From assembly GCA_000991245.1 (NCBI GenBank), contig LBRD01000006.1, positions 39,340 to 103,339 of the forward strand: DNA of 64,000 nt. The letters are read 5' to 3'. Of this stretch, positions 21,369 through 61,945 are shown piece by piece. This DNA is from Parcubacteria group bacterium GW2011_GWC1_36_108. Lineage in GTDB: Bacteria; Patescibacteriota; Minisyncoccia; Moranbacterales; GWC2-37-73. The notes under the pieces were generated by a model that worked only from the letters and a program-made list of their open reading frames with translations, did no database searches and was not told the DNA's origin. How positions within the stretch are numbered: the stretch's first letter is position 1; every line of letters begins with the position of its first letter. The position numbers and the translations under genes are program-made.

Positions 21369-21508
21369 ATTTCAAAATATCCTTTTTTGTCATTCTCAGC
21401 TTGACTGGGAATCCAGCCCTTATCAGCCTCGGTAAATTTATTATTTCAAATATGTAGTAACGATTAGTGTCGGGTCTGGATTCCCGTTTTCACGGGAATG
21501 ACAATGAC

Positions 21509-34692: not shown

Positions 34693-35886
34693 TTATTTTA
34701 TGATTTTTGTTGCAACTCCAGCACCAACAGTCTTTCCACCTTCGCGAATTGCGAATCTCATTCCTTCTGCCATAGCTACAGGAGCGATCAATTTGATAAC
34801 CAAGTTGATTGTGTCTCCAGGCATAACCATCTCAGTTCCTTCTGGAAGCACAACTTCTCCAGTTACATCAGTTGTTCGGATGTAGAATTGAGGTTTATAT
34901 CCTTTGAAGAATGGAGTATGTCGTCCACCTTCTTCTTTTGTCAAAATGTAAATTTCACCTTCGAATTCAGTATGAGGAGTGATTGAACCAGTCTTAGCCA
35001 AAACTTGTCCGCGTTCAACATCTTCCTTTTTAATTCCACGAATCAAAAGTCCAGCATTGTCTCCAGCTTGTCCCTTATCAAGTGATTTGTTGAACATTTC
35101 GATTCCAGTCACAACTGTTTTTGCAGTTGGACGAAGACCAACGATTTCAACTTCTTCATTGATGTTGATTGTTCCTGATTCGATTCTTCCAGTTACCACT
35201 GTTCCACGACCTTCAATTGAGAAGATATCTTCAATAGGCATAAGGAAAGGTTTTTCTGTTTCACGAACAGGTTCTGGAATTTGAGCATCCAAAGCAGCCA
35301 TAAGGTCATAGATTGGCTTCACAACTGCATCATCAATTGATTTTGCTGTCAAAGCTTGAGTTGCTGATCCACGGATAACTGCTGCGTTATCACCATCAAA
35401 TTCATATTTTGAAAGAAGTTCACGAACTTCAGCTTCAACAAGCTCAATAAGTTCCTCATCATCAACCATATCAACCTTATTGATGAAAACAACGATTGCA
35501 GGTACACCAATTTGTTTTGCAAGCAAGATGTGTTCACGTGTTTGAGGCATAGGACCATCAGTAGCAGAAACTACCAAGATTGCTCCATCCATTTGAGCAG
35601 CACCAGTAATCATGTTTTTGATGTAATCAGCATGTCCTGGGCAGTCTACGTGAGCGTAATGACGAACGTCTGTTTCGTATTCACAATGTGAAGTAGCGAT
35701 AGTAATTCCACGTTCTCTTTCTTCTGGAGCATTATCAATTTCACCAACTCCTCTTTCTTTTGCAAATCCTTTCAAAAATTGACCATGAAGAATAGCCGCG
35801 GTCAAAGTTGTCTTGCCGTGGTCAACGTGTCCAATTGTTCCTACGTTTACATGTGGTTTTGTTCGTTCAAACTTTTCTACTGCCAT
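34693..35886 (-). CDS. tuf: Elongation factor Tu
   Basis: [26 protein letters not shown]. Confidence 0.95.
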
Positions 35887-36223
35887 AGTGTTTTTTTCGC
35901 TATTCCCTGCGAGCTATTTTTGCTCAAGAGTGCGATTGTTTAAAGATGATTTATTATTTAATATAACATGGATTTACTCTTAATTGCAAATCCAAAAAAT
36001 TCCTTTTGCGGAAATTAGATACTTAATTACTTTACACGAATAGAAAATATCTGTCAAGGGCTGAAGATTAGCTTTTTAGGCATTAGCTTTTTAGCTTTTC
36101 AGTTAACGAATTTTTTGGCTTATTTAAAGCATCTTTTACAGATAATAGTTCATGCCAAATTCAAAATATCCACACATCTGCATAGTTATATATTGTTATT
36201 AAAATCATTGACTAAATATTGAT

Positions 36224-36259
36224 ACAAAAAGCTATCAACCCAATAAGGCCGATAGCTTT
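36224..36259 (-). terminator. Terminator for the coiled-coil gene
   Basis: AAAGCTATC...GATAGCTTT 9-bp stem, followed by a T-run on the minus strand. Confidence 0.6.
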
Positions 36260-36285
36260 ATAAAAGAAAGGTGTTTTTACTGTGC

Positions 36286-36642
36286 TTACTGAGAATATGA
36301 ATGTTTTTCCAGTTTGACGACGCGTTTTTCAAGTTTCTCAAATTGTTCAGCGTCAACCTTGCGTTTCAGTTCAAATTTCACCTCTACCATATCGTCTTGC
36401 AATCTGTCGATTTTTGTTTCGACTAATTCGAGTCGACCCTCAACACCACCAAGCCTAACTTCCACCTTTTCAAGTCTGTTCTCAACTTTTTCCAGCCTAT
36501 TATCTATACCATCAAGACGAACATTAGTCCCTGATTGAGCTTCAGCCAGTATCTTAATAGAATCATCCATTCTTTCAAGAATAGAGCCGATTTGATTTAC
36601 TGTGAAAACTTTTTCTTCTTTTGTTTGAGATGTATTTTTCAT
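36286..36642 (-). CDS. Hypothetical coiled-coil protein with RLEKVE-type heptad repeats
   Basis: IDNRLEKVENRLEKVEVRLGGVEGRLELVETKIDRL. Confidence 0.5.
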   Translation of the reverse strand: MKNTSQTKEEKVFTVNQIGSILERMDDSIKILAEAQSGTNVRLDGIDNRLEKVENRLEKVEVRLGGVEGRLELVETKIDRLQDDMVEVKFELKRKVDAEQFEKLEKRVVKLEKHSYSQ

Positions 36643-36681
36643 GTTTGTATTTTATAACTATAAATTAGGTGCGTCAAACCT

Positions 36682-36753
36682 GCCCCGTGAAATTGTTTAC
36701 CCTATTGAATTTATTTTATTCAATAGGGCGGTACTCAGCACTATTTCACTGGG
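36682..36753. other. Structured leader element, copy b (40 nt upstream of the coiled-coil gene)
   Basis: CCCCGTGAAAT...[CCCTATTGAAT-loop-ATTCAATAGGG]...ATTTCACTGGGG. Confidence 0.7.
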
Positions 36754-36764
36754 GTCAATTTTAA

Positions 36765-37031
36765 TCACTGCAAATAAGTTTTTGCTTCTTCGAGCGTTGC
36801 AATGAAATTTGCAGTGTGATCCTTAAAAATCATCACGCGATTGGTCACATTTTCACCCTTTTGATTCTTATACGAATCAGTAATGGTCAGATAGTTGCTA
36901 CCATTACTAGCTTTTTTCACATCAAAGAAATAATTTTTACCCCCAGCGCGCAGCATTTTTGAAAACACGCTTTCTTTGATTTTGTTTTCTCCGTTATAGG
37001 TGGCTGATTGGTTTTGATTTTGGTTATACAT
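36765..37031 (-). CDS. Small nucleic-acid-binding-like protein (PUR-alpha / DUF3276-like). Tentative.
   Basis: GGKNYFFDVKKASNGSNYLTITDS...RVMIFKDH...ATLEEA repeat pattern. Start trimmed to MYNQNQ. Confidence 0.3.
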   Translation of the reverse strand: MYNQNQNQSATYNGENKIKESVFSKMLRAGGKNYFFDVKKASNGSNYLTITDSYKNQKGENVTNRVMIFKDHTANFIATLEEAKTYLQ

Positions 37032-37328
37032 ATAAATTGACTTACAACTAACAATTCCCAACCAACAACACACTAATGCAAACTAGCTGCACACATGTAT
37101 TGTGGTTAAAAGTTATTAGTTATGAGTTGTGAATTATTGGTTGTTAGTTGTTTGTTATAAGTTGTTAGTTATTCATAAGCCTGGCCACTGCTCATAGTGA
37201 TATCATAGCACTTACCCAATATCACTGCAAGCATCAACGGCTGTGGATAACTTGGGGTAGGTTTTAGGTGTTAGGTTGTAGCTATTAGGTTTACAAAAAA
37301 ACAGCCCTTGCGAGCTGATTTTAGAGAT

Positions 37329-37349
37329 GGGTATTTAAATGGGTATTTA
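37329..37349. repeat. GGGTATTTAAAT(GGGTATTTA) near-palindromic motif, copy 1
   Basis: Direct reading. Confidence 0.8.
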
Positions 37350-37351
37350 TT

Positions 37352-37738
37352 TTATAAAGTCTCTATCCATTTGTCATCAATGAGTTTAAGCACTGACTGA
37401 CCACTGATTGGAATTTCATCCTCATTAAAATATGTGACATGAACTGCGGTCTCAGATGCAGAGCCTCCTGCAAGCCCCCTCGCTTTATAATCACCTTTTC
37501 TGATGTATGAATATTCCACGCTGCCTCCATCTTCTTGCGTAATTTTAATTTCCCAAAGATAAAGTCCTTGCTCATCTTCCAATTTACGACGAGTTTCAAA
37601 TTTAAGCTCACCCAATATTTTTTCAAATAATGAGCAAACCTCTTCCAAATTTGGAATATGCTCAGGAGTTGGAATATTTTCCGGTATAAAATTTTTAAGC
37701 GGTTCAGCAAATGGATTGTTTGAAAATTTTTCAGACAT
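37352..37738 (-). CDS. Hypothetical protein (island cassette gene)
   Basis: Start trimmed to MSEKFSNNPF. The ORF N-terminus MMIIVQLNTHLNTHL is a translation of the repeat motif. Flanked on both sides by the GGTGGGTATTTAAAT motif. Confidence 0.4.
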   Translation of the reverse strand: MSEKFSNNPFAEPLKNFIPENIPTPEHIPNLEEVCSLFEKILGELKFETRRKLEDEQGLYLWEIKITQEDGGSVEYSYIRKGDYKARGLAGGSASETAVHVTYFNEDEIPISGQSVLKLIDDKWIETL

Positions 37739-37758
37739 ATTTTTTTCTAAAATTTTTA

Positions 37759-37782
37759 GGTGGGTATTTAAATGAGTATTTA
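37759..37782. repeat. GGTGGGTATTTAAATGAGTATTTA motif, copy 2
   Basis: Direct reading. Confidence 0.8.
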
Positions 37783-37797
37783 ATTGCACAATAATCA

Positions 37798-38505
37798 TCA
37801 TTTCAGACCTATGATTGCAATCATCGCATCAACGAATGGCGTTTTATCCCTTCGAAAAGAGAACAGATTATCCGCTTCAAAAGTACAGGTCTCATTATTT
37901 TCAATATTGGTTTCTTTTATGCCCAGCCCCGTAAGTTGTTTTTTGATTATACTCTTGAGGTCTACAAACATTTTGCCGTCTCTTTTAGTGATAAATTCAT
38001 GATAATCCGCAAACGATTCCAACGCATCAGCCTTTATCTCAAAATGGCATTCATTTATTCCTGGTCCTAGTGCAACAAACAAATCATTTTTATTTCCACC
38101 CAAGCTTGAAATTCCATCCACTGTGTTTTTCAATACATCCCCAACAATACCTCTCCAACCAGCATGCGCAAGAGCAACAATTCCCTTTTCTTTTTCATAG
38201 AAAAATACCGGCACGCAGTCAGCAATCGTTATTGCAAGAAACGCGCCTTTTTCAGTTGTGATTAAGGCATCGGTCTTTGTGATGATTTTCGTTTCGGCAT
38301 CAGTCACAACTTCAACATGATTACCGTGAACCAAATTGGCACTGACCACCGCACCACCATCAATTCCAAACTTTTCAAAAAATAATTCTCGATTTTTCTG
38401 ATTTTTCCTTCTAATTGCCTCATCTGAAGCAATTCTCAATGAGCCGTCTTCCTTTTCGGACATAATAGCTGTGAGTTCGGGAAATTGTTCAAAAAAATTC
38501 AACAT
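37798..38505 (-). CDS. pgeF: YfiH/PgeF (DUF152) laccase-domain protein
   Basis: HGNHVEVV and CVPVFFYEKEKGIVALAHAGWRG. Confidence 0.8.
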   Translation of the reverse strand: MLNFFEQFPELTAIMSEKEDGSLRIASDEAIRRKNQKNRELFFEKFGIDGGAVVSANLVHGNHVEVVTDAETKIITKTDALITTEKGAFLAITIADCVPVFFYEKEKGIVALAHAGWRGIVGDVLKNTVDGISSLGGNKNDLFVALGPGINECHFEIKADALESFADYHEFITKRDGKMFVDLKSIIKKQLTGLGIKETNIENNETCTFEADNLFSFRRDKTPFVDAMIAIIGLK

Positions 38506-38526
38506 ATTATTTTAGCAGATAGGTGT

Positions 38527-39111
38527 TTAATTATCTATTATGACAAACTCATCTTCACGAATCGCATAGGCTGGTAATTTTTCTTTATAATCTTCCAACA
38601 TCTTAAATTTATCATCACCACTCATAGCAGCGTATTCTCCATTGGACATGTAATGCGTAATCATCTTAACTGACAAAAAATTCAAACCATCGAACACTCT
38701 ATCATAATCCTGATCATAATAATATTTGGCAAACACCAATGACCCAGCCGAAGAACCTATGACGATTTTATTCTCCAAGAGCTTTTCTGGGTCAGAAATC
38801 TCTTCCAATTTTTTCTGAAGCATCGGAGTGTCACCTCCCCTAAAATAAACAACTTCACATTTTTTTATTTGGTTGGCAAATTCAGATGGATTATCTGATG
38901 CCAAAATGTAATCAATATCCCAACGAGCCAAAACAAGCCTGAATCTTTTCGTTTCCAGCAAAAGATCTTCCCAATTTTCTTTAGGTCTAGCGAAAAATAC
39001 CAACAAGACTTTTGACTCTCTTGGAATCAAACTTAAGAGCTTCCAAAGATTGAAGTATTTCTTAATCGAGAATTTTTTTGTCGAGCCACCCTGCAGGATA
39101 TATTTTGTCAT
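38527..39111 (-). CDS. Peptidase S51 (PepE/cyanophycinase-like) family protein
   Basis: GGSTKK, VYFRGGDTPML, IGSSAGSLVF. Confidence 0.55.
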   Translation of the reverse strand: MTKYILQGGSTKKFSIKKYFNLWKLLSLIPRESKVLLVFFARPKENWEDLLLETKRFRLVLARWDIDYILASDNPSEFANQIKKCEVVYFRGGDTPMLQKKLEEISDPEKLLENKIVIGSSAGSLVFAKYYYDQDYDRVFDGLNFLSVKMITHYMSNGEYAAMSGDDKFKMLEDYKEKLPAYAIREDEFVIIDN

Positions 39112-39113
39112 AA

Positions 39114-39527
39114 TTATTTTTCTAAATTATCAACCAAAAACTTTTTCAAGCTCTCCAAATCTTTTCTCTCTGCGTCGTAAAAATATGTTTTAATGCCGAC
39201 TGACTCCGCGCTTTTGACGGCTTCGGCGCCATGTTCGAAATAAATGACATCATCTGCTTTTAGGTCAAAATGTTCCAGCATCATTTCATGGTATTTCGGA
39301 TCAGTCTTTTCGGGATCGTGTTTCAAAGTAAAAACTTCATATGGCGCATCATGCAGCTTGAATGTTTCCATCTGCTCATCATTTGCTCCGGTTAGAATTA
39401 TTTTCCTGTTTGGAAATTCCTCAAGAAGCTCGTGCATTTCTTCAAATACATTTCCATCTTCCTCGATTAATGTAAAAACCGCGTCTACTAAGATTGTTTT
39501 CATAGAATTTTTAATTATTTTTATCAA
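39114..39527 (-). CDS. Small HAD-superfamily hydrolase
   Basis: ILVDAVFTL (motif I-like), ILTGAND and a terminal D motif. Confidence 0.5.
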   Translation of the reverse strand: MIKIIKNSMKTILVDAVFTLIEEDGNVFEEMHELLEEFPNRKIILTGANDEQMETFKLHDAPYEVFTLKHDPEKTDPKYHEMMLEHFDLKADDVIYFEHGAEAVKSAESVGIKTYFYDAERKDLESLKKFLVDNLEK

Positions 39528-39792
39528 AGGTTGTGCCTAAAGTATACCCAATTATTCCACTAAATATCGTTGCAACCAATGAGCCTTCCAGTATTCCAAG
39601 AACAGCCAAGGCTAGCGTACCTATTGTTATAAATATAATTGCAACACTTTTTAAGGTATTATTTGGAGTAAGCCAATGCTTCAATTCGCCAGTAGTTGCC
39701 TTCATTGCCCACATTAAAGTAATCCACCAAATTGTAACTGCAGAAAATGGCACCACCAACATTATTAATAGTAACCAAAAGTTTTTTTCCAT
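39511..39792 (-). CDS. Small two-helix membrane protein
   Basis: Hydrophobic profile only. Confidence 0.35.
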   Translation of the reverse strand: MEKNFWLLLIMLVVPFSAVTIWWITLMWAMKATTGELKHWLTPNNTLKSVAIIFITIGTLALAVLGILEGSLVATIFSGIIGYTLGTTFDKNN

Positions 39793-39815
39793 ACTTCTTT
39801 AAATTAGTTTAAATA

Positions 39816-39992
39816 TTATTTCTTCCAATCTTTAATCTCAATTCCACCGTGGATTCTTTTAACTACGACTTTCTGTTTTGTTTTCCAACCCAATTCCCGC
39901 ACCATTTCAACTGGCAAAGTTAAACCAACTGACTGTTTGCCGATTTTGCACAGCTTGCGGATGTTTTTATCTTCTGATTTTCGAACTGCCAT
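39816..39992 (-). CDS. AbrB/MazE/SpoVT-fold small DNA-binding protein (58 aa). Not in the ORF track.
   Basis: Minus-strand translation MAVRKSEDKNIRKLCKIGKQSVGLTLPVEMVRELGWKTKQKVVVKRIHGGIEIKDWKK. The looped-hinge-helix pattern is typical of MazE/AbrB antitoxin-like proteins. Confidence 0.55.
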   Translation of the reverse strand: MAVRKSEDKNIRKLCKIGKQSVGLTLPVEMVRELGWKTKQKVVVKRIHGGIEIKDWKK

Positions 39993-40054
39993 ATGTTTTT
40001 TGCCATACCCTCGTTACAATATACTGAAATATTGTAATGAAGTCTGTATAATTT

Positions 40055-41008
40055 TTATTTTTTCAATAATAACAAAACAAGGCCAATAACTCTATCCTTG
40101 TCTTTTGGATTGCTTTCGGCAATAAGTAAAGTGAGTGCAGTAAGCGCTTCTGGGGTGATTTTTTTTCTGAAATCAAAACCAGCTTTTTGCAAAAACCAAA
40201 TAAAAGAAAACGCACCGCTTCTTTTGTTGCCATCAACAAATGGATGGTTCTTCACCACAAAATAAAGCAGATGCACAGCTTTTTCCTCGATTGTTGGATA
40301 CAAATCTTTTCCGCCAAAAGCCTGGAAAACATTTCCCACAATTCCAGCCAAACTGCTTCCCTTGCGCTCGATGGCAAAAATTTCAGTCGCCTGCCCTTTT
40401 CGAATAAGTTCTTTTTTGAGTTGTCCAATGGAATCTTCCAATTCTTCCCCGGTCAAAGCAACTTTCTTTTTTGTGGCGCCCTTAACTGGAAGCGCTTCTT
40501 TGTCATACGCATCCAATGAAAACCAGGTTCCTGCAAACATCTTCACGAGCTCCATCGCATCTCGAGCTGTGATACGGTCGTCCGACGGAAGCAACTTTTT
40601 TGTCTCCTCAACTGCAATCAAAAACTTTTCGTAATTTTGTTCAATACGGGAAGGGTTGATTACAAAGCCATTCGTAATATAGTTACGAAGAATTTTAGAA
40701 GCCCACTTTCTAAAAATTATAGCATTGCTGGAATTTGCCCTATATCCCACAGCCAGAATCATATCCAGTGAGTAAAACGACACCGGCTTATCAGAATTTG
40801 CAATGTGCATTTTTTGCACATTGCTTTTTTCATCAACTTCTTTGTTTTTTAAAATATTACCAATATGCTTTGTGACTACTGATCTTTCTAGATTAAAAAC
40901 GTCGGCGATCTGTTGCTGAGATGCCCAGATTGTTTCTTTTTTCGCATCAACAGAAAGCTCAATAGCTCCATTTTTCGCTTGATAAATTTCAATGTTTTTT
41001 TGTTTCAT
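40055..41008 (-). CDS. Fic/Doc-family protein of the RhuM type
   Basis: C-terminal HPFVDGNKRSGAFS (the Fic motif HPFx[DE]GNxR). N-terminal RhuM-like IEIYQAKNGAIELSVD...TIWASQQQIADVF. Confidence 0.75.
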   Translation of the reverse strand: MKQKNIEIYQAKNGAIELSVDAKKETIWASQQQIADVFNLERSVVTKHIGNILKNKEVDEKSNVQKMHIANSDKPVSFYSLDMILAVGYRANSSNAIIFRKWASKILRNYITNGFVINPSRIEQNYEKFLIAVEETKKLLPSDDRITARDAMELVKMFAGTWFSLDAYDKEALPVKGATKKKVALTGEELEDSIGQLKKELIRKGQATEIFAIERKGSSLAGIVGNVFQAFGGKDLYPTIEEKAVHLLYFVVKNHPFVDGNKRSGAFSFIWFLQKAGFDFRKKITPEALTALTLLIAESNPKDKDRVIGLVLLLLKK

Positions 41009-41045
41009 TTTTTAATGAATTATTGATTATAATGATATTATATCA

Positions 41046-41054
41046 CTATATATT
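41046..41054 (-). promoter_or_regulatory. Candidate extended -10 (TGATATAAT) for the Fic gene
   Basis: Minus strand reads TAGTGATATAAT about 38 nt upstream of the ATG. Confidence 0.35.
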
Positions 41055-41093
41055 TTTTATGCAATACCTAACATATTTTTTATATTAGTATTT

Positions 41094-41115
41094 AATACCT
41101 ATTTAAATACCCACC
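41094..41115. repeat. Motif copy 3, opposite orientation (AATACCTATTTAAATACCCACC)
   Basis: Direct reading. Confidence 0.8.
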
Positions 41116-41215
41116 TCGTCGCAACTGCTTCAAGTTTACTCCTATAATCCTTGATATTCAAGCATTAAAAAAGGACCGGAAAATACTATTTCCCGGTCCT
41201 GAGGCGTTGTGTGAT

Positions 41216-41404
41216 TTATTCACTGTACGATTTAAGCAATCTTGCCATCGCCCTGTGCCCGTCTGGATCGTACCTGCGATGGATCGCAGCTAGACGCCTA
41301 GTAACGTCAACACCTTCCAAAACTTTACGTCTGTCTGTTGCAGCAGCCAATGCCCAACTGAAGTTTTTGGCTCTTGGTTTTTCAGGAACTTTTTCTTTAC
41401 TCAT
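41216..41404 (-). CDS. Small basic Ala/Arg-rich protein (62 aa). GC-rich cassette gene.
   Basis: GGGAGG RBS 7 nt upstream of the MSKEKVPEKP start. Overlaps the stop of the upstream ORF (ATGA). Confidence 0.3.
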   Translation of the reverse strand: MSKEKVPEKPRAKNFSWALAAATDRRKVLEGVDVTRRLAAIHRRYDPDGHRAMARLLKSYSE

Positions 41405-41421
41405 TTTAATCCCTCCCATCT

Positions 41422-41637
41422 TCATGGCCAAGCATTTAATATTGTCTGGATTTCAGACTCCCGACATCCAAGACAATTTCCTTGACCACCACAGGTGCAA
41501 ACCCCATAATCAGGGTCGTTACGCATACGAGGCATTTCATCTGCATTCTTTCTGCAAAATCGTGCTAGCTCAAGATTCACAGTGTATGCTTGTTTTTTTT
41601 CTGGTTCAGCTTGAAATCCACGACATCCGCAATGCAT
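41422..41637 (-). CDS. Small Cys-rich protein (71 aa). GC-rich cassette gene.
   Basis: AGGAGGTG RBS immediately upstream of MHCGCRGFQ. The sequence contains CGC, CRK and CTCGGQGNCLGC. Confidence 0.3.
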   Translation of the reverse strand: MHCGCRGFQAEPEKKQAYTVNLELARFCRKNADEMPRMRNDPDYGVCTCGGQGNCLGCRESEIQTILNAWP

Positions 41638-41664
41638 AACCCACCTCCTGTGTTTTTTGTATAG

Positions 41665-41680
41665 ATTTAAATACCCACCC
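41665..41680. repeat. Motif copy 4, opposite orientation (GATTTAAATACCCACC)
   Basis: Direct reading. Confidence 0.8.
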
Positions 41681-41731
41681 AACCCAAGTCTAAACCTAAA
41701 CTGATATTTGGACAAGAAAAAGGGTTCTTTT

Positions 41732-42307
41732 TCACATGAACACATTTTCTGCATTGTTTCTATCGCGATGCCACATTTCGGGATTGATTTTTATGTATTC
41801 TCTGATTTTATTCAGTGATTCGTCGTCGCGAATTATGTGATCATAGAAACGAGGCTGCCAAGCAAAATTCATAGTTTGACCAATATGATTTATTTCAAAT
41901 GAACATCGACCCTTATACCATCTAATTATTTTTGACAAAGAATATGGGTTATTCATAGGATTATTTTTTCCCGTGATACCACCCGTAGAGACGCGATTAA
42001 TCGCGTCTCTACGCATTGCCATGTTAATATCATTTTTGCAAATTTCAATTATCCCATGAACATGATTAGGCATCACAACAAATTCATCCAAAACAATAAA
42101 TGGAAAATGATCTGGAATTCCCTTCCAACATTCTTCTGCGATTTTTCCAATTTTATTCAACACCATTTTTCCATCCACAATCTCGCCAAAAAATTCCTCG
42201 CGATTTTTTGTGCAGATAGTCACGAAATACATCCCATTTTGAGAATAATCATAACCCTCTAATCTTGCAGATTTAATTGTGTATTTATTTTTAAATTTTT
42301 CTTGCAT
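41732..42307 (-). CDS. HuH tyrosine transposase, IS200-like / REP-associated (RAYT) type
   Basis: HuH motif MPNHVHGII and a downstream IIRWYKGRCS (Y-KG-S pattern). No tnpB partner. REP-like palindromes sit inside the gene and upstream. Confidence 0.65.
   Translation of the reverse strand: MQEKFKNKYTIKSARLEGYDYSQNGMYFVTICTKNREEFFGEIVDGKMVLNKIGKIAEECWKGIPDHFPFIVLDEFVVMPNHVHGIIEICKNDINMAMRRDAINRVSTGGITGKNNPMNNPYSLSKIIRWYKGRCSFEINHIGQTMNFAWQPRFYDHIIRDDESLNKIREYIKINPEMWHRDRNNAENVFM
41985..42012. repeat. REP-like 28-bp perfect palindrome GTAGAGACGCGATTAATCGCGTCTCTAC (copy inside the RAYT coding sequence, in frame)
   Basis: Direct reading. Identical to the copy at 42400-42427. Confidence 0.85.
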
Positions 42308-42399
42308 TTTTGTTTATTTTATATATCCATTATTGCATAAAAATTAATATAACAAAAAACGATTTCATTAGGAAATCGTTTTTTGTATAGAAACGTTGC

Positions 42400-42427
42400 G
42401 TAGAGACGCGATTAATCGCGTCTCTAC
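42400..42427. repeat. REP-like 28-bp palindrome, second copy, between fusA and the RAYT gene
   Basis: Direct reading. Confidence 0.85.
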
Positions 42428-42440
42428 CACAAATTGAAAT

Positions 42441-44534
42441 TTATTTTTTAGCAATAATCTCATCAGCAACATTCTTTGGAACTTCTGAATAATTTGAAAA
42501 TTCCATTGAATAACTGGCGCGTCCTTGAGTCATTGATCGCATTTGAGTTGCGTAACCAAACATATTTGCAAGAGGAACTTCTGATTCAATTTCTTTCACG
42601 CGAGCGTTTCCTTCTCCGCGATCATTGATTTCTTTGATCATTCCACGACGTGAGTTGATGTCACCAACAATGTCTCCCATAAATTGTTCTGGGCAAGTCA
42701 CTACCACTTTCATGATAGGTTCAAGAATAACTGGGTTGGCGCGCTTTACTGCTTCCTGCACTGCCATTGAACCAGCGATTTTGAAAGCTGCTTCGTTGGA
42801 GTCAACTTCATGGAAGGATCCGTCATACAAAGTTACAACCACATCAACCATTGGATATCCAGCCAAAACTCCATTTTCCAAAGCTTCCTTGGCTCCAACA
42901 GAAATAGGTTTGATGTATTCTTGTGGAATAACACCACCTTTAATTTCGTCAAAGAATTCAAAGCCTTTACCTTTTTCTTCTTGAGGACGAACTTTAAGCC
43001 AACAATGACCATACTGTCCGCGACCTCCAGATTGTTTAACATATTTTCCTTCAGCTTGAGCTTCAGCTTTGATTGTTTCGCGATATGCAACTTGAGGCTG
43101 ACCGATATTTGCTTCAACACCAAATTCTCGTTTCATACGATCAACAATAATATCAAGATGAAGTTCACCCATTCCTGAGATAATCGTTTGTCCTGATTCT
43201 TCATCAGTGCGAAGTCGTAGTGTTGGGTCTTCGCCAGCAAGTTTGCGAAGAGCAACTCCCATTTTTTCTTGATCAGCTTTTGTCTTTGGTTCAACTGCAA
43301 TATCAATCACAGGTTCTGGGAAAACAATATTTTCAAGTTGAATTGGGTTTGCTTCATCACAAAGAGTGTCTCCAGTTGTTGTATTCTTAAGTCCAACCAA
43401 AGCTCCAATTCCACCAGCGCGAATCTCATCAATTTCTTCACGATGATTTGCATGCATTTGAAGAATTCGTCCAATTCTTTCTCTTTCTCCATTGGTTGAA
43501 TTGATAACATATGAGCCAGCTTTAAGTGTTCCTGAATATACGCGGAAGAATGTTAGTTGTCCTACAAATGGATCAGTTGCGACTTTGAAAGCCAAAGCAG
43601 AAAATGGTTCGTTGTCATCAGCGTGACGTTCAATTTCCAATTCTGTTTTTGGATCAATTCCTTTGATAGAAGTAACATCCAATGGAGATGGAAGATAATC
43701 AACCACAGCATCCAAAACTAATTGCACACCTTTGTTACGAAGAGCAGTTCCAGTAAAAACTGGCACAAGTTTTGCATCGATAACTCCTTGGCGTAGTGCA
43801 ACTTTCAATTCATCAATAGAAATTTCCTCTCCGTTTAAATATTTTTCAGTCAAAGCATCATTGGTTTCAGAAACTTTTTCAATCATTTTTTCTCTCCAAG
43901 CTTGCGCCTTTTCCAAAAGCTCTGCAGGAATTTCACTTTCAACCACGATTTCACCCATCGGACCATCAAAAGAATATGCTTTCATTTTGATCAAATCAAC
44001 CACGCCAGAAAAATCATTACGTTCTCCGATTGGCATTTGAAGAGCGATTGCATTTGGGGTTAAACGATTCCAAATTGAATTGATCACGTAATCAAAATCA
44101 GCACCTTCTTTGTCAATCTTATTGATAAAACAAATTCGAGGCACCTTATATTTGTCAGCTTGACGCCAAACAGTTTCAGATTGTGGCTCAACACCTTCTT
44201 TACCATCAAAAATAACAACAGCACCATCAAGCACTCGTAGTGAGCGTTCAACTTCTACTGTGAAGTCCACATGTCCCGGGGTGTCAATAATATTAATTGG
44301 ATGACCCTTCCAGAAACATTTGGTTGCAGCGGATGTGATGGTGATTCCACGCTCCTGTTCTTGAGCCATCCAGTCCATTGTGGCTGAGCCATCATGAACT
44401 TCACCAATCTTATGAGTGATTCCAGTATAAAACAAAATACGCTCAGTGGTTGTTGTTTTTCCACCGTCGATATGAGCAATAATACCAATATTTCTTAATT
44501 TTGCGATTTCACTTTCTGTGGATACTATAGACAT
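42441..44534 (-). CDS. fusA: Elongation factor G
   Basis: [20 protein letters not shown] and a full five-domain length (697 aa). Confidence 0.95.
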
Positions 44535-50471: not shown

Positions 50472-50767
50472 TTTCCACATTTCTTTTTCCGCAAAAGAAA
50501 CGTGGAGCAAAGAAAACTCGCACCTGATGAAGGTACTGTGGCAAAAACTTCGCTCTTCGCTAAAATTTACACTTCGCGCCTACGCTTGCTAGCGGGCGCT
50601 ACGTTTTAAAATTTCTTAACGCGAAATCGCTTGTTTTTCGCCTACGTACTTCATATGGTGCAAAGGGAATGCGGGATGCAAATGCAACTAAGTAAGAGTG
50701 AGAATACTTTTTATTTTTTCGCTTGGAAGAGCACTTCCACGGGAAAAAATAAAAATGTATTCGAACG
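50472..50767. repeat. Composite intergenic repeat element (R1 module, 92-nt insertion, R2 hairpin module)
   Basis: Homologous at roughly 85-90% identity to 54661-54892 apart from the insertion. Confidence 0.8.
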
Positions 50768-54569: not shown

Positions 54570-54660
54570 ATTACTTTGTCTTTTATAAATTAAAAAGCGA
54601 TTATCTCGCTGAATATTCATATTTTAGCAGAAAATTGAGATTAATCAAGAGCCGTGCTTA

Positions 54661-54892
54661 TTTCCACATTTCTTTTTCCCGCAAAAAGAAACCTGGAGGA
54701 AAGAAAAGCTCGCACCGGATGAAGATACTGTGGCAAAAACTTCGTTCTTCACTAAAATCAAAGGGATGCGGAATGCAAAAAAAGCAAGAGTGAGAATGAT
54801 TTTTGTTTTTTCGCTTAAAACAAGTCTCATTGGCGTTATGTCAAAAGTTGCAATTGTTTTTCTGTGACAAAAACAAAAAGGCATTCTCACGA
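54661..54892. repeat. Composite intergenic repeat element (R1 plus R2 with a nested insertion)
   Basis: See 50472-50767. The R2 loop carries the insert AAAACAAGTCTCATTGGCGTTATGTCAAAAGTTGCAATTGTTTTTCTGTGACAAAAAC, which is also present at 61871-61927. Confidence 0.8.
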
Positions 54893-61753: not shown

Positions 61754-61945
61754 CTTCTTGATTAAAATGCTGTTTTAATAACAAGGAGTGAAAATACTTT
61801 TTATTTTTTCACTTGCACCCTCCGGGTATATATTGTCTGGACAAAATCAAAGATTTTGAAAGCCAATTAAAACAAGTCTCATTGGTGTTATGTCAAAGGT
61901 TGCAATTGTTTTTCTGTGACAAAAATAAAAATGTATTCTCACGAC
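61754..61945. repeat. Partial R1 tail plus R2 hairpin module with a nested insertion, downstream of nrdD
   Basis: GAGTGAAAATACTTTTTATTTTTTCACTTGC...AAAACAAGTCTCATTGGTGTTATGTCAAAGGTTGCAATTGTTTTTCTGTGACAAAAATAAAAATGTATTCTCACGA. Confidence 0.75.

Follow-up and report, generated by a model that had tools for sequence, protein, structure and literature searches.

AbrB and Abh of Bacillus subtilis, members of the SpoVT/AbrB-MazE-MraZ swapped-hairpin superfamily, bind DNA through a small beta-beta-alpha-beta-beta domain. Their operators contain at least two TGG half-sites separated by A/T-rich spacers, in AbrB sites as TGGNA pairs joined in tandem or palindromic arrangement (PMC3025583), and lie over promoters, including those of the regulator itself. 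The 64,000-nt stretch analyzed here (the window) is a segment of a Candidatus Moranbacteria (CPR) chromosome with an island of accessory genes between fusA and tuf. The island encodes a 58-aa protein with a weakly predicted fold of this kind, and its repeated motif agrees with published AbrB sites (PMC3025583) in having TGG-containing half-sites and A/T-rich spacers, in tandem or inverted, at promoters where autoregulation is proposed. In contrast to AbrB, the protein lacks a C-terminal multimerization or toxin-binding domain and scores below the Pfam cut-off for the family. The site is also far sharper than AbrB sites, with a nearly invariant 12-bp unit, and it is additionally found, always reversed, at the junctions between genes.

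Integron arrays (attI, attC, and IntI) share with the island a head site, variable short same-strand and mostly promoterless cassettes, uniform repeats, and a fixed locus. However, attC sites are imperfect palindromes of 57 to 141 bp with R''/L''-L'/R' boxes, whereas the motif has 15 to 27 bp and direct units. The GTTRRRY core is absent from the motif copies, head and internal copies have the same sequence in opposite orientations, and no integrase was detected among the island genes (Pfam, NCBIfam, and PADLOC) or in loci L168 to L192 of related genomes (Pfam families). The pdif (Xer) modules of Acinetobacter plasmids are likewise small accessory, toxin-antitoxin, or defense modules bracketed by short sites, with no dedicated recombinase adjacent. 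In the 28-bp pdif and dif sites, a 6-bp spacer separates two inverted 11-bp arms, and pdif sites alternate in orientation around the modules, whereas the internal motif copies all point the same way and their units repeat directly with 12-bp phasing. The direct arms, seen by inspection, led us to reject a dif/pdif Xer site; only the outer TTAAAT presumably resembles a XerD arm. Type II toxin-antitoxin systems (Doc/Phd and MazEF) offer a further parallel, with a Doc-like domain encoded beside a small MazE/AbrB-like protein and a repeated site at the promoter, but here the toxin gene comes first and the small protein has no toxin-binding tail.

CPR/Patescibacteria cannot be grown alone, and almost nothing is known about their gene regulation and gene flux. 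A sharply defined cis element conserved across genomes, together with a candidate 58-aa binder, can be studied in vitro and in Escherichia coli reporters, with no culture needed.

Motif copies and layout of the island

The exact 12-mer GGGTATTTAAAT occurs four times in the window, at 37329 (+), 37762 (+), 41101 to 41112 (-), and 41665 to 41676 (-), whereas 100 dinucleotide-preserving shuffles averaged 0.01 matches. All four copies lie in the island. Their number, orientations, flanked genes, and restriction to the island agree with the first-pass annotation. Allowing up to 2 mismatches in the window added, above chance, only the neighboring second units at 37341 and 37774. The sequence conserved in the window is G[G/A]T-GGGTATTTAAAT, and no published description of the motif was found. 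The features annotated between 37302 and 41715 are as follows, in the order in which the genes are read.

41687-41715, minus strand: predicted sigma-70-like promoter P_D, TTGTCC-N17-TAGACT
41665-41682, minus strand: copy D, forward head copy, one unit, GGGTTGGGTGGGTATTTAAAT on the minus strand
41216-41637, minus strand: two-gene cassette bracketed by copies C and D, comprising orf71 (41422-41637, Cys-rich) and orf69 (41216-41425), with a 4-nt overlap
41172-41200, minus strand: intrinsic terminator of the two-gene cassette, 13-bp stem and T-run
41133-41161, minus strand: predicted sigma-70-like promoter P_C, TTGAAT-N17-TAAACT
41090-41116, minus strand: copy C, forward head copy, two units, AGGTGGGTATTTAAAT AGGTATT-AAAT
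40055-41008, minus strand: RhuM-N plus Fic/Doc protein (Doc/RhuM), 317 aa, candidate defense gene, full-length match to PADLOC PDC-S23
39816-39992, minus strand: 58-aa AbrB/MazE-like protein, proposed motif binder
37798-39792, minus strand: cargo of the C-headed unit, encoding a 93-aa membrane protein and HAD-like, Peptidase_S51, and Cu-oxidase_4/YfiH-like proteins
37758-37785, plus strand: copy B, junction copy, reversed relative to the genes
37352-37738, minus strand: orf128, conserved 128-aa protein of unknown function, bracketed by copies A and B
37326-37352, plus strand: copy A, tail copy, reversed, abutting the orf128 stop codon and followed by the terminator
37302-37317, minus strand: array-ending intrinsic terminator, CAGCTCGCAAGGGCTG and T7, preceding the DUF3276 promoter and leader

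Copies A, B, and C carry a second 12-bp unit that is directly repeated rather than inverted (GGGTATTTATTT, GAGTATTTAATT, and AGGTATT-AAATA, respectively), while copy D has a single unit. The consensus of 54 distinct instances from related loci is tAGGT-GGGTATTTAAAT-RGGTATTTAAaT, the second tandem unit after AGGT-GGGTATTTAAAT being RGGTATTTAAAT. The motif had initially been described as a 16-bp near-palindrome, a description that these direct units replace. With up to 3 mismatches allowed, GGGTATTTAAATACCC matched copy C alone, at exactly 3 mismatches; C is the only near-palindromic copy in the window, and true palindromic versions are confined to other genomes (L135/L155, L186, and L192). Copies B and C together form a 27-nt inverted repeat (89%), and the second unit of C has a 1-bp deletion relative to its counterpart in L145.

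The two forward copies each lie directly downstream of a conserved predicted promoter. P_D and its flank have a 57-nt match in L160 (84%) and a 37-nt match in L164 (92%), and P_C has a conserved counterpart in L145 (298 nt at 96%) and also occurs upstream of a D-like site in L139. These promoters would place copy D near +1 of its transcript and copy C at about +10 to +15. Copy C, with its last base at 41090, lies 81 nt upstream of the Doc/RhuM gene (ATG at 41008), and the orf71 ATG (41637) is 27 nt past the last motif base of copy D (41665). The sequence of the two-gene cassette begins right after the AAAT of copy D, with a strong Shine-Dalgarno sequence (AGGAGGTG). As noted previously, this cassette is GC-rich (44.5% versus 36% for the window). 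Neither orf71 nor orf69 has a match in Pfam, PHROGs, NCBIfam, or PADLOC, and homologs from this cassette follow a D-like motif downstream of fusA in L139. Copy B is located 12 nt past the Cu-oxidase_4 stop codon and 19 nt ahead of the ATG of orf128, the homologs of which form 71 clusters in Moranbacteria and Parcubacteria. The order of motif, terminator, and DUF3276 at copy A recurs in L183, and L133/L158 have the motif only.

The first-pass annotation had also pointed to the -10-like center of the motif. As a portable core promoter present once per module, the motif would use the A/T-rich TATTTAAAT as its -10 box and GGTGGG as an upstream or discriminator element. Many copies do lie 25 to 55 nt upstream of start codons in gene orientation, identical sequences precede unrelated genes in several lineages, and, by inspection, A, C, L118, and L131 have TTG-type hexamers 17 to 18 nt ahead of TATTTA. 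However, a sigma-70 consensus scan did not pick out the motif on the coding strand; the one call that drew on motif sequence was a plus-strand 9/12 match with TTTAAA of copy B as the -35 box, antisense to the Cu-oxidase_4 gene. In addition, TATTTA lacks the invariant T at -7, better conserved -35/-10 pairs lie upstream of C and D, and about half of the copies run opposite to the only genes there. No degenerate copies (up to 2 mismatches) precede the other operons of the window. A sigma-70 core promoter was rejected because the scan made no coding-strand call and because of the separate conserved hexamer pairs, and promoter activity has a low probability as the main function.

The AbrB/MazE-like protein and its association with the motif

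The family of the 58-aa protein comprises only 36 clusters, all from Moranbacteria or Parcubacteria. The protein matches Pfam PF04014 with an E value of 1.2e-4 and 22.4 bits, below the cut-off of 24.7. Its AF2 model has a beta-beta-alpha-beta-beta topology (pLDDT of 74), the best Foldseek matches of which are MazE and the AbrB N-domain, although with E values of 0.17 to 1.8, and a PDB profile search with the protein found nothing. The AbrB-like gene is next to Doc/RhuM in L158, L160, and the window alone; its neighbors in other loci are genes for dCTP deaminase (DCD), methylases, GmrSD, PGK, and DUF2268 proteins. A dedicated antitoxin was rejected because of these unrelated neighbors in most relatives and the length of only 58 aa.

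Eight loci fetched solely through homology to the AbrB-like protein served as an unbiased test set. In five of them (L174, L183, L186, L187, and L188), the motif (up to 1 mismatch) precedes the AbrB gene or its operon by 14 to 100 nt. A sixth locus, L176, carries a tandem pair in degenerate form, and L180 has a related ACGTATTTAATT repeat. By comparison, more than 100 kb of control sequence (the 57 kb of non-island DNA in the window, plus L180, L181, and L189 to L191) contained zero motifs. In addition to the five loci, the window, L145, and L160 have a repeated site at the promoter of the protein's own gene or operon, with the motif heading an operon that includes the AbrB gene. The motif is exactly conserved where the AbrB proteins are 74% to 93% identical and other intergenic DNA fails to align. 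In other lineages, a TATAAT box is found 3 to 4 nt upstream of the motif (L167, L134/L151, L127/L157, and L111/L165). The placement of these boxes and of the -35/-10 pairs suggests that the motif overlaps the start site or follows it closely, as is typical of repressor sites. Copies within one array have no array-specific variants in common with their head, and all are near one consensus, the pattern that a shared trans-acting factor would be expected to produce.

Based on these sequence comparisons, the motif is tentatively interpreted as a lineage-specific protein-binding array, most likely the operator of the island's 58-aa AbrB/MazE-like protein. The operator for a dimeric helix-turn-helix protein suggested earlier survives in part: the motif and the AbrB-like gene co-occur far above chance, with the motif usually directly upstream of the gene or its operon, but the site is a tandem repeat with no dyad, and the fold match is weak. 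The binding array would consist of one to four tandem 12-bp units, with the core TATTTAAAT flanked by GGG, and an AGGT cap. Since C and D lie directly downstream of conserved sigma-70-like promoters, protein bound to these forward copies would block initiation or early elongation. Such a block would autoregulate the Doc/RhuM-AbrB operon at C and repress the foreign two-gene cassette at D. The reversed copies, B in the stop-to-start gap before orf128 and A in the stop-to-terminator gap, may act as roadblocks or form a loop with the head site.

Against this reading, the window's AbrB-like gene has a different palindrome directly upstream (40013 to 40039). RhuM/Bro-N domain proteins likewise recur beside the motif and could be its binder instead. 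The six-copy array of L192 has no AbrB-like gene within the flanking DNA examined. Motifs upstream of unrelated genes, which had been named as a sign of a generic promoter element, are found only in other lineages; in the ACD/CAYVME MAG, at least 8 dispersed sites lie by housekeeping genes with no AbrB-like gene in the DNA examined.

Cassette arrays in related genomes

The island is one case of a hypervariable accessory/defense array in the fusA (or rpoC)-to-tuf gap of Moranbacteria-like CPR genomes, in which the motif marks the heads and the cassette junctions. In related genomes, forward head copies lie just 3' of a conserved sigma-70-like promoter, and reversed copies occupy short gaps between consecutive cargo genes or lie right before the terminator. 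This orientation rule is strict, with heads forward and at least 7 junction or tail copies reversed, and the copies are tightly coupled to stop and start codons; simple autoregulation predicts neither the rule nor the coupling. The motif lies at gene-to-gene gaps in uniform orientation in the window, L183, L186, L188 (3 reversed), L192 (5 reversed), and L144 (3 copies). In the window (C and then B and A), L183, L186, L188, and L192, the array consists of same-strand cassettes bounded by the uniformly oriented repeat after a head site. The variable cargo includes Doc/RhuM, GmrSD, methylase, dCTP deaminase, CYTH, and NUDIX genes. Candidate defense genes (Doc/RhuM PDC-S23, GmrSD, methylases, dCTP deaminase, and CYTH/NUDIX) accumulate in this recurrent array beside the most highly expressed translation genes, a possible place to seek new CPR defense systems.

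This architecture bears on the cassette or recombination sites that the first-pass annotation had offered as an alternative. The motif would then be a crossover site, site specific or acting through short homology, at which cassettes of one to four genes are inserted, excised, and shuffled. Functionally, the motif would correspond to integron attC or pdif sites, and the direct pairs A/B and C/D would release the cassette between them as a circle. Several observations fit this reading. From one motif to the next, L188 and L192 have the CYTH cassette in common, next to different upstream neighbors, and the orf128 cassette is common to the window and L192, where it is preceded by the same reversed tandem motif and homology stops at the outer edge of B. 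The motif is also where promoters are reassorted with downstream genes: the window has P_D-motif-cassette, L139 has P_C-like-motif-cassette, and L160 has P_D-like-motif-RhuM. The second unit of copy D is lost just at the point where the foreign GC-rich cassette begins. The content from copy A to the AbrB gene is completely different in a 91%-identical relative, and L158 has unrelated DNA in place of the cargo at 37798 to 39792.

Other observations speak against it. In L145, the C block includes about 50 nt of upstream promoter, which puts that boundary away from the motif, and the HAD-like gene is common to the window and L192 with no motif at its borders. No target-site duplication was visible in the flanks as read, and the island is identical at all six places shown (24 same-species contigs read). 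The arrays have no integrase, resolvase, or transposase in or beside them, the sole exception being a RAYT transposase gene in the window, and the direct repeat is not the inverted-arm core used by tyrosine recombinases. The motif is absent around orf128 homologs only in other lineages (L189 to L191). The cassette architecture is real and recurs in relatives. Use of the motif as a crossover site is rather unlikely, but it is the main rival to the operator reading. A more specific version, in which the motif is the junction site of an undescribed integrase-less CPR cassette system, seems somewhat less likely again. In it, small cassettes for defense and nucleotide metabolism would be captured and shuffled by way of a 24- to 27-bp tandem-repeat site in a chromosomal array at the fusA/rpoC-tuf hot spot, with the AbrB-like protein as a site-binding accessory factor and a host or unrecognized enzyme exchanging strands. 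If the junction role were recombinational, it might represent an integron-like cassette mechanism without an integrase.

Possible RNA pairing or interspersed repeats

The opposite orientations of head and internal copies are those needed for intramolecular pairing. If the motif were an RNA element, a transcribed head and the reversed copies would pair over long range on one mRNA, with effects on processing (e.g., by RNase III), stability, or translation. The predicted duplex energies are -29.7 kcal/mol for C:B and -32.1 kcal/mol for C:A, compared with -10 ± 2.7 kcal/mol for shuffled partners, and the head copies downstream of predicted -10 boxes and the reversed copies 5 to 34 nt ahead of start codons are positioned accordingly. 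However, head and internal copies do not covary: the heads of L192 (TTTGAAT) and L188 (TAATTAAAT) deviate, while the internal copies keep the consensus. Copy D has no reversed partner ahead of its terminator, lone sites such as L174 have no inverted copy in the flanking DNA examined, and no Rfam family matches the motif. An RNA element has a low probability, and protein binding to the DNA remains the preferred reading.

A selfish short interspersed repeat of the REP/MITE type, spread by the neighboring RAYT transposase and without host function, is the least probable of the explanations considered and very improbable. REP elements are typically found at gene 3' ends inside operons. The motif resembles REP/BIME-RAYT systems in its intergenic location, including gene 3' ends within operons, and a RAYT gene (NF047646, E value of 1.5e-20) lies 50 nt from copy D. 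In contrast to REP/BIME elements, the motif is AT-rich, is not a GC-rich hairpin, has few copies, all confined to the island, and is found in other arrays without RAYT. The RAYT gene is instead flanked by its own repeat, GTAG-initiated 31-nt palindromes unrelated to the motif, at 41985 to 42015 and 42397 to 42427.

Motif copies in the fusA-tuf island

Almost all of the genes in the window lie on the minus strand, where Pfam assignments give the order rpsL, rpsG, fusA (42441-44534), a 6.5-kb island, tuf (34693-35886), and rpsJ with the ribosomal protein operon. The exact 12-mer GGGTATTTAAAT occurs four times in the window, at 37329 (copy A, plus), 37762 (copy B, plus), 41112-41101 (copy C, minus), and 41676-41665 (copy D, minus), versus 0.01 expected (mean of dinucleotide-preserving shuffles of the window), which bears out the four copies reported in the first-pass annotation. 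Copies with ≤1 mismatch were absent from the controls (the window's 57 kb outside the island and loci L180, L181, and L189 to L191), and the motif is thus limited to the island within the window, as had been claimed. With ≤2 mismatches, the window contains 14 matches versus 11.6 by chance, and the only additional nonrandom matches are the units adjoining copies A and B. All four aligned copies have G[G/A]T-GGGTATTTAAAT; behind it, A, B, and C carry another 12-bp unit in direct orientation, which D lacks. Copies B and C form a 27-nt inverted repeat (89%) enclosing 3.3 kb. The 16-bp near-palindrome originally described at these sites was not recovered, since GGGTATTTAAATACCC, with ≤3 mismatches allowed, matches copy C alone, at 3 mismatches.

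From the fusA side, the island contains a RAYT gene, copy D, a two-gene cassette (orf71 and orf69), a terminator, copy C, and genes for a RhuM-N/Fic-Doc protein, a 58-aa AbrB-like protein (39816-39992), a small membrane protein, and HAD-like, Peptidase_S51, and Cu-oxidase_4/YfiH-like proteins, followed by copy B, orf128, copy A, and a terminator. Beyond it lie a DUF3276 gene, which has a long conserved leader, and a gene for a coiled-coil protein. Features in and next to the island are as follows:

42386-42352, minus, intrinsic terminator
41715-41687, minus, predicted promoter hexamers upstream of copy D (TTGTCC-N17-TAGACT), with equivalents in L160 and L164
41200-41172, minus, intrinsic terminator
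41161-41133, minus, predicted promoter hexamers upstream of copy C (TTGAAT-N17-TAAACT), conserved in relatives
After copy C and before the AbrB-like gene, minus, RhuM-N/Fic-Doc protein (PADLOC PDC-S23, E = 1e-103)
37317-37302, minus, intrinsic terminator

No tRNA gene was found in the window, an Rfam search of the island returned only sub-threshold noise, and orf128, orf71, and orf69 had no match in PHROGs, NCBIfam, or PADLOC. The identical AbrB-like protein and island occur in Rifle groundwater metagenomes and in two Candidatus Moranbacteria assemblies, LBRQ01000011 and LBTM01000011, which places the source organism in the CPR.

The two-gene cassette (41216-41660) has a G+C content of 44.5% and a strong Shine-Dalgarno sequence, AGGAGGTG, whereas the neighboring island genes have A-rich leaders without one, which suggests that the cassette was acquired from a different donor. 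Public gene calls give orf128 149 aa (window 37738-37801; L168 10192-10641), reading through copy B, whose tandem units are then translated as LNTHLNTH; the start at 37738 (128 aa) is backed by homologs.

The motif in accessory-gene arrays

A scan of 185,579 species genomes with TGGGTATTTAAATNRGTATT yielded 30 loci, approximately 18 of which are clearly beyond chance, being capped by AGGT/GGGT and built of two to four units in tandem. Several loci can occur in one genome: MAG CAYVME01 has them on seven contigs and Parcubacteria GW2011_GWD2_38_11 on two. Metagenomes added 27 loci, and the consensus of 54 distinct instances is tAGGT-GGGTATTTAAAT-RGGTATTTAAaT. In viral collections, the tandem pattern had no match, the 15-mer had 109 single matches that look like chance or coding matches, and the palindromic 17-mer had 2, at chance level; the motif is therefore not phage-borne. 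In fusA and tuf, GW2011_GWD2_38_11 and the window share ~91% identity. This genome carries a D-like copy that follows fusA and precedes homologs of the two-gene cassette (L139), together with an A-like copy ahead of the DUF3276 leader (L133/L158), and its DNA from the A-like copy to the AbrB gene is unrelated to that of the window.

Forward copies read with the genes and stand at the heads of arrays, and reversed copies stand at junctions and tails. The layouts are as follows:

Window: forward copy C, followed by reversed copies B and A
L183: forward copy at the head of AbrB-DCD-HisPhos; after these, a reversed copy with the same terminator as in the window, and then DUF3276 and tuf
L186: forward copy ahead of AbrB and methylases, with a reversed copy after them
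L188: forward copy ahead of 195-aa gene-AbrB-GmrSD-CYTH; then 157-aa gene-PPase, CYTH, and NUDIX, each preceded by a reversed copy, and last DUF3276
L192: palindromic forward head; RibD_C-DCD-HAD-AAA, GNAT-cupin, DUF218, CYTH, NUDIX, and orf128 homolog, separated into gene groups by five reversed copies; tuf

Reversed copies overlap or closely trail the preceding stop codon (approximately -6 to +24 nt) and lie 5 to 34 nt ahead of the next ATG or directly ahead of a terminator. The CYTH cassette is common to L188 and L192 from motif to motif, and the orf128 cassette is common to the window (37290-37785) and L192, with homology stopping at the outer edge of copy B. Because the layout recurs and cassettes are common to different arrays, the motif marks the junctions of a hypervariable array of accessory genes that occupies the fusA/rpoC-tuf gap.

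The first-pass annotation had also offered cassette or recombination sites as an explanation, and its first half agrees with the position of the motif at cassette junctions across arrays. A recombination junction would account for the modularity of the cassettes, for promoters and genes being reassorted at the motif, and for the truncation of copy D. However, no recombinase was found close to the arrays, the site is built as a direct repeat, the C block in L145 carries ~50 nt of upstream flank, and the HAD-like gene has moved without the motif at its borders. Population variants were not seen either, as strain-level islands sought through the identical AbrB protein have one gene order at all 6 places shown (24 same-species contigs). 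Recombination at the motif is thus a rather unlikely explanation. Head and reversed copies could pair in RNA at a plausible predicted energy (-30 kcal/mol), and such pairing would fit the orientation rule, but no compensatory variation occurs within the arrays, and we consider it highly improbable.

The array looks integron-style yet fails the defining tests of integrons, and the motif fails those of pdif sites and REPs; the element likewise fails those of toxin-antitoxin pairs. A RAYT-driven REP fits the motif poorly and is a very improbable origin. Literature searches for the motif strings, CPR integrons, and CPR defense islands found nothing describing the element. By inspection, a dif site, whose consensus was compared with the motif arms, was rejected because the arms are direct rather than inverted, and a transposon end was rejected because neither a target duplication nor a transposase is present.

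In Moranbacteria-like genomes, the fusA (or rpoC)-tuf gap is a hot spot of recurrent insertion (window 35887-42440; L183, L188, L192, L139, L149, and L160), with cargo that differs wholly between relatives and includes GmrSD, Dam-type and N4/N6 methylases, dCTP deaminase, CYTH, NUDIX, and Doc/RhuM. In L144 (3.2 kb) and L147, the motif occurs as a variant lengthened by the palindrome TAATTACGTAATTA. L144 has three copies, all reversed and each behind a gene, with an intrinsic terminator after two of the three; Bro-N, HD, and AAA genes are among the cargo. Beyond CPR, GGGTATTTAAAT occurs as two to three tandem units (L148/L154/L163, L120, L115, and L116/L142): in archaeal contigs (56% GC) at 20 nt from a TBP gene, in a Pseudomonadota contig (59% GC) within a large noncoding gap, upstream of pheS in a Bdellovibrio MAG, and in a low-GC contig immediately 3' of a TTGACT-16-TAAAAT promoter. 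Such units may have arisen independently by slippage or may belong to the same element.

Association with the AbrB-like gene and promoters

The AbrB-like family comprises 36 clusters, all from Moranbacteria or Parcubacteria. Since loci found through the motif would carry ascertainment bias, association was assessed only in eight further loci fetched solely via diverged AbrB homologs and then scanned for the motif. The motif lies 23, 68, 73, and 14 nt upstream of the AbrB gene or operon in L174, L183, L186, and L187, respectively, and ahead of a 195-aa gene and AbrB in L188. In L176, the site 77 nt upstream is a tandem pair in degenerate form; L180 has a repeat of the related ACGTATTTAATT type, and L181 an unrelated palindrome. 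The motif also heads the AbrB-containing operon in the window, L145, and L160, and an HMM search of all other motif loci found no AbrB-like ORFs beyond those already known.

A terminator precedes each of the hexamer pairs upstream of copies C and D, and the C pair reads TTGAAT-N17-TAAGCT in L145 and TTGAAT-N17-TAGGCT in L139. Other lineages have a TATAAT or TATATT box 3 to 4 nt upstream of the motif. Because these elements sit just upstream, the motif probably begins at about +1 to +15 of the transcript, relative to predicted start sites. The motif center had been called -10-like; a generic promoter scan gives no coding-strand call on the motif (one weak plus-strand match overlaps copy B), and a plain -10 element fits poorly and is highly improbable. 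Two further candidates were rejected: a mini-ORF per unit (ATG GGT ATT TAA, M-G-I-stop), in which the ATG is ATA in about half of the copies, and, by inspection, a sigma-54 promoter, as the GC at -12 is absent.

The AbrB-like protein is modeled as beta-beta-alpha-beta-beta, with MazE and the AbrB N-domain as top structural matches below formal significance, as is every line of evidence for its fold. The direct-repeat sites of MraZ served as a comparison for the motif. Published AbrB sites are TGGNA pairs, tandem or inverted, with A/T-rich spacers between them (PMC3025583), and the motif, TGGGT-ATTTAAA-TGGGT, is alike in style. The motif behaves like an AbrB-type operator, and quite possibly, though short of probably, it is one for the AbrB-like protein. 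Such a role would account for the association with the AbrB-like gene, for head copies close to promoters, for the sharp conservation, and for the likeness of site style. Of the dimeric operator first proposed, the co-occurrence with the AbrB-like gene stands, whereas the units are direct repeats and the 16-bp palindrome is absent. An operator by itself does not account for why junction and tail copies are uniformly reversed, nor for the L192 array and the ACD/CAYVME dispersed sites, which have no AbrB gene in the flanking DNA examined. Operator and recombination junction are not mutually exclusive, because repeated operators could be homology for cassette shuffling. Like this one, all functional statements on the motif and array are drawn from sequence.

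Other elements of the island

Shortly upstream of the RAYT (REP-associated tyrosine transposase) gene (41732-42307; NF047646, E = 1.5e-20) lies a perfect palindrome of the GTAG type, 31 nt long, GTAGAGACGCGATTAATCGCGTCTCTAC (42397-42427). An identical copy lies within the RAYT ORF (41985-42015) at codons ~98 to 108 (RRDAINRVST), and the RAYT may therefore carry an insertion of its own REP.

The noncoding DUF3276 leader (37032-37300, minus) is 83 to 87% conserved in L158 and L183 and has no Rfam match. It holds repeats of the heptamer AACCTAA, a TTATCCACA that resembles a DnaA box, a promoter (TTGCAG-N17-TATGAT), and a long CA-rich/GT-rich hairpin (37046-37069 paired with 37147-37170), and it may be a structured autoregulatory 5' UTR. 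A 27-nt palindrome, TTACAATAT...ATATTGTAA (40013-40039), conserved in L158, lies between the Doc/RhuM stop and AbrB-like start codons and may serve as a further operator or as a weak terminator. Short dispersed repeats of the window (50510-50642, 54657-54886, and 61870-61938; also 21382-21506) recur within and beside the island of a relative (L133/L158 6805-7028; L139 6350-6474 and 7566-7995) with 86 to 100% identity.
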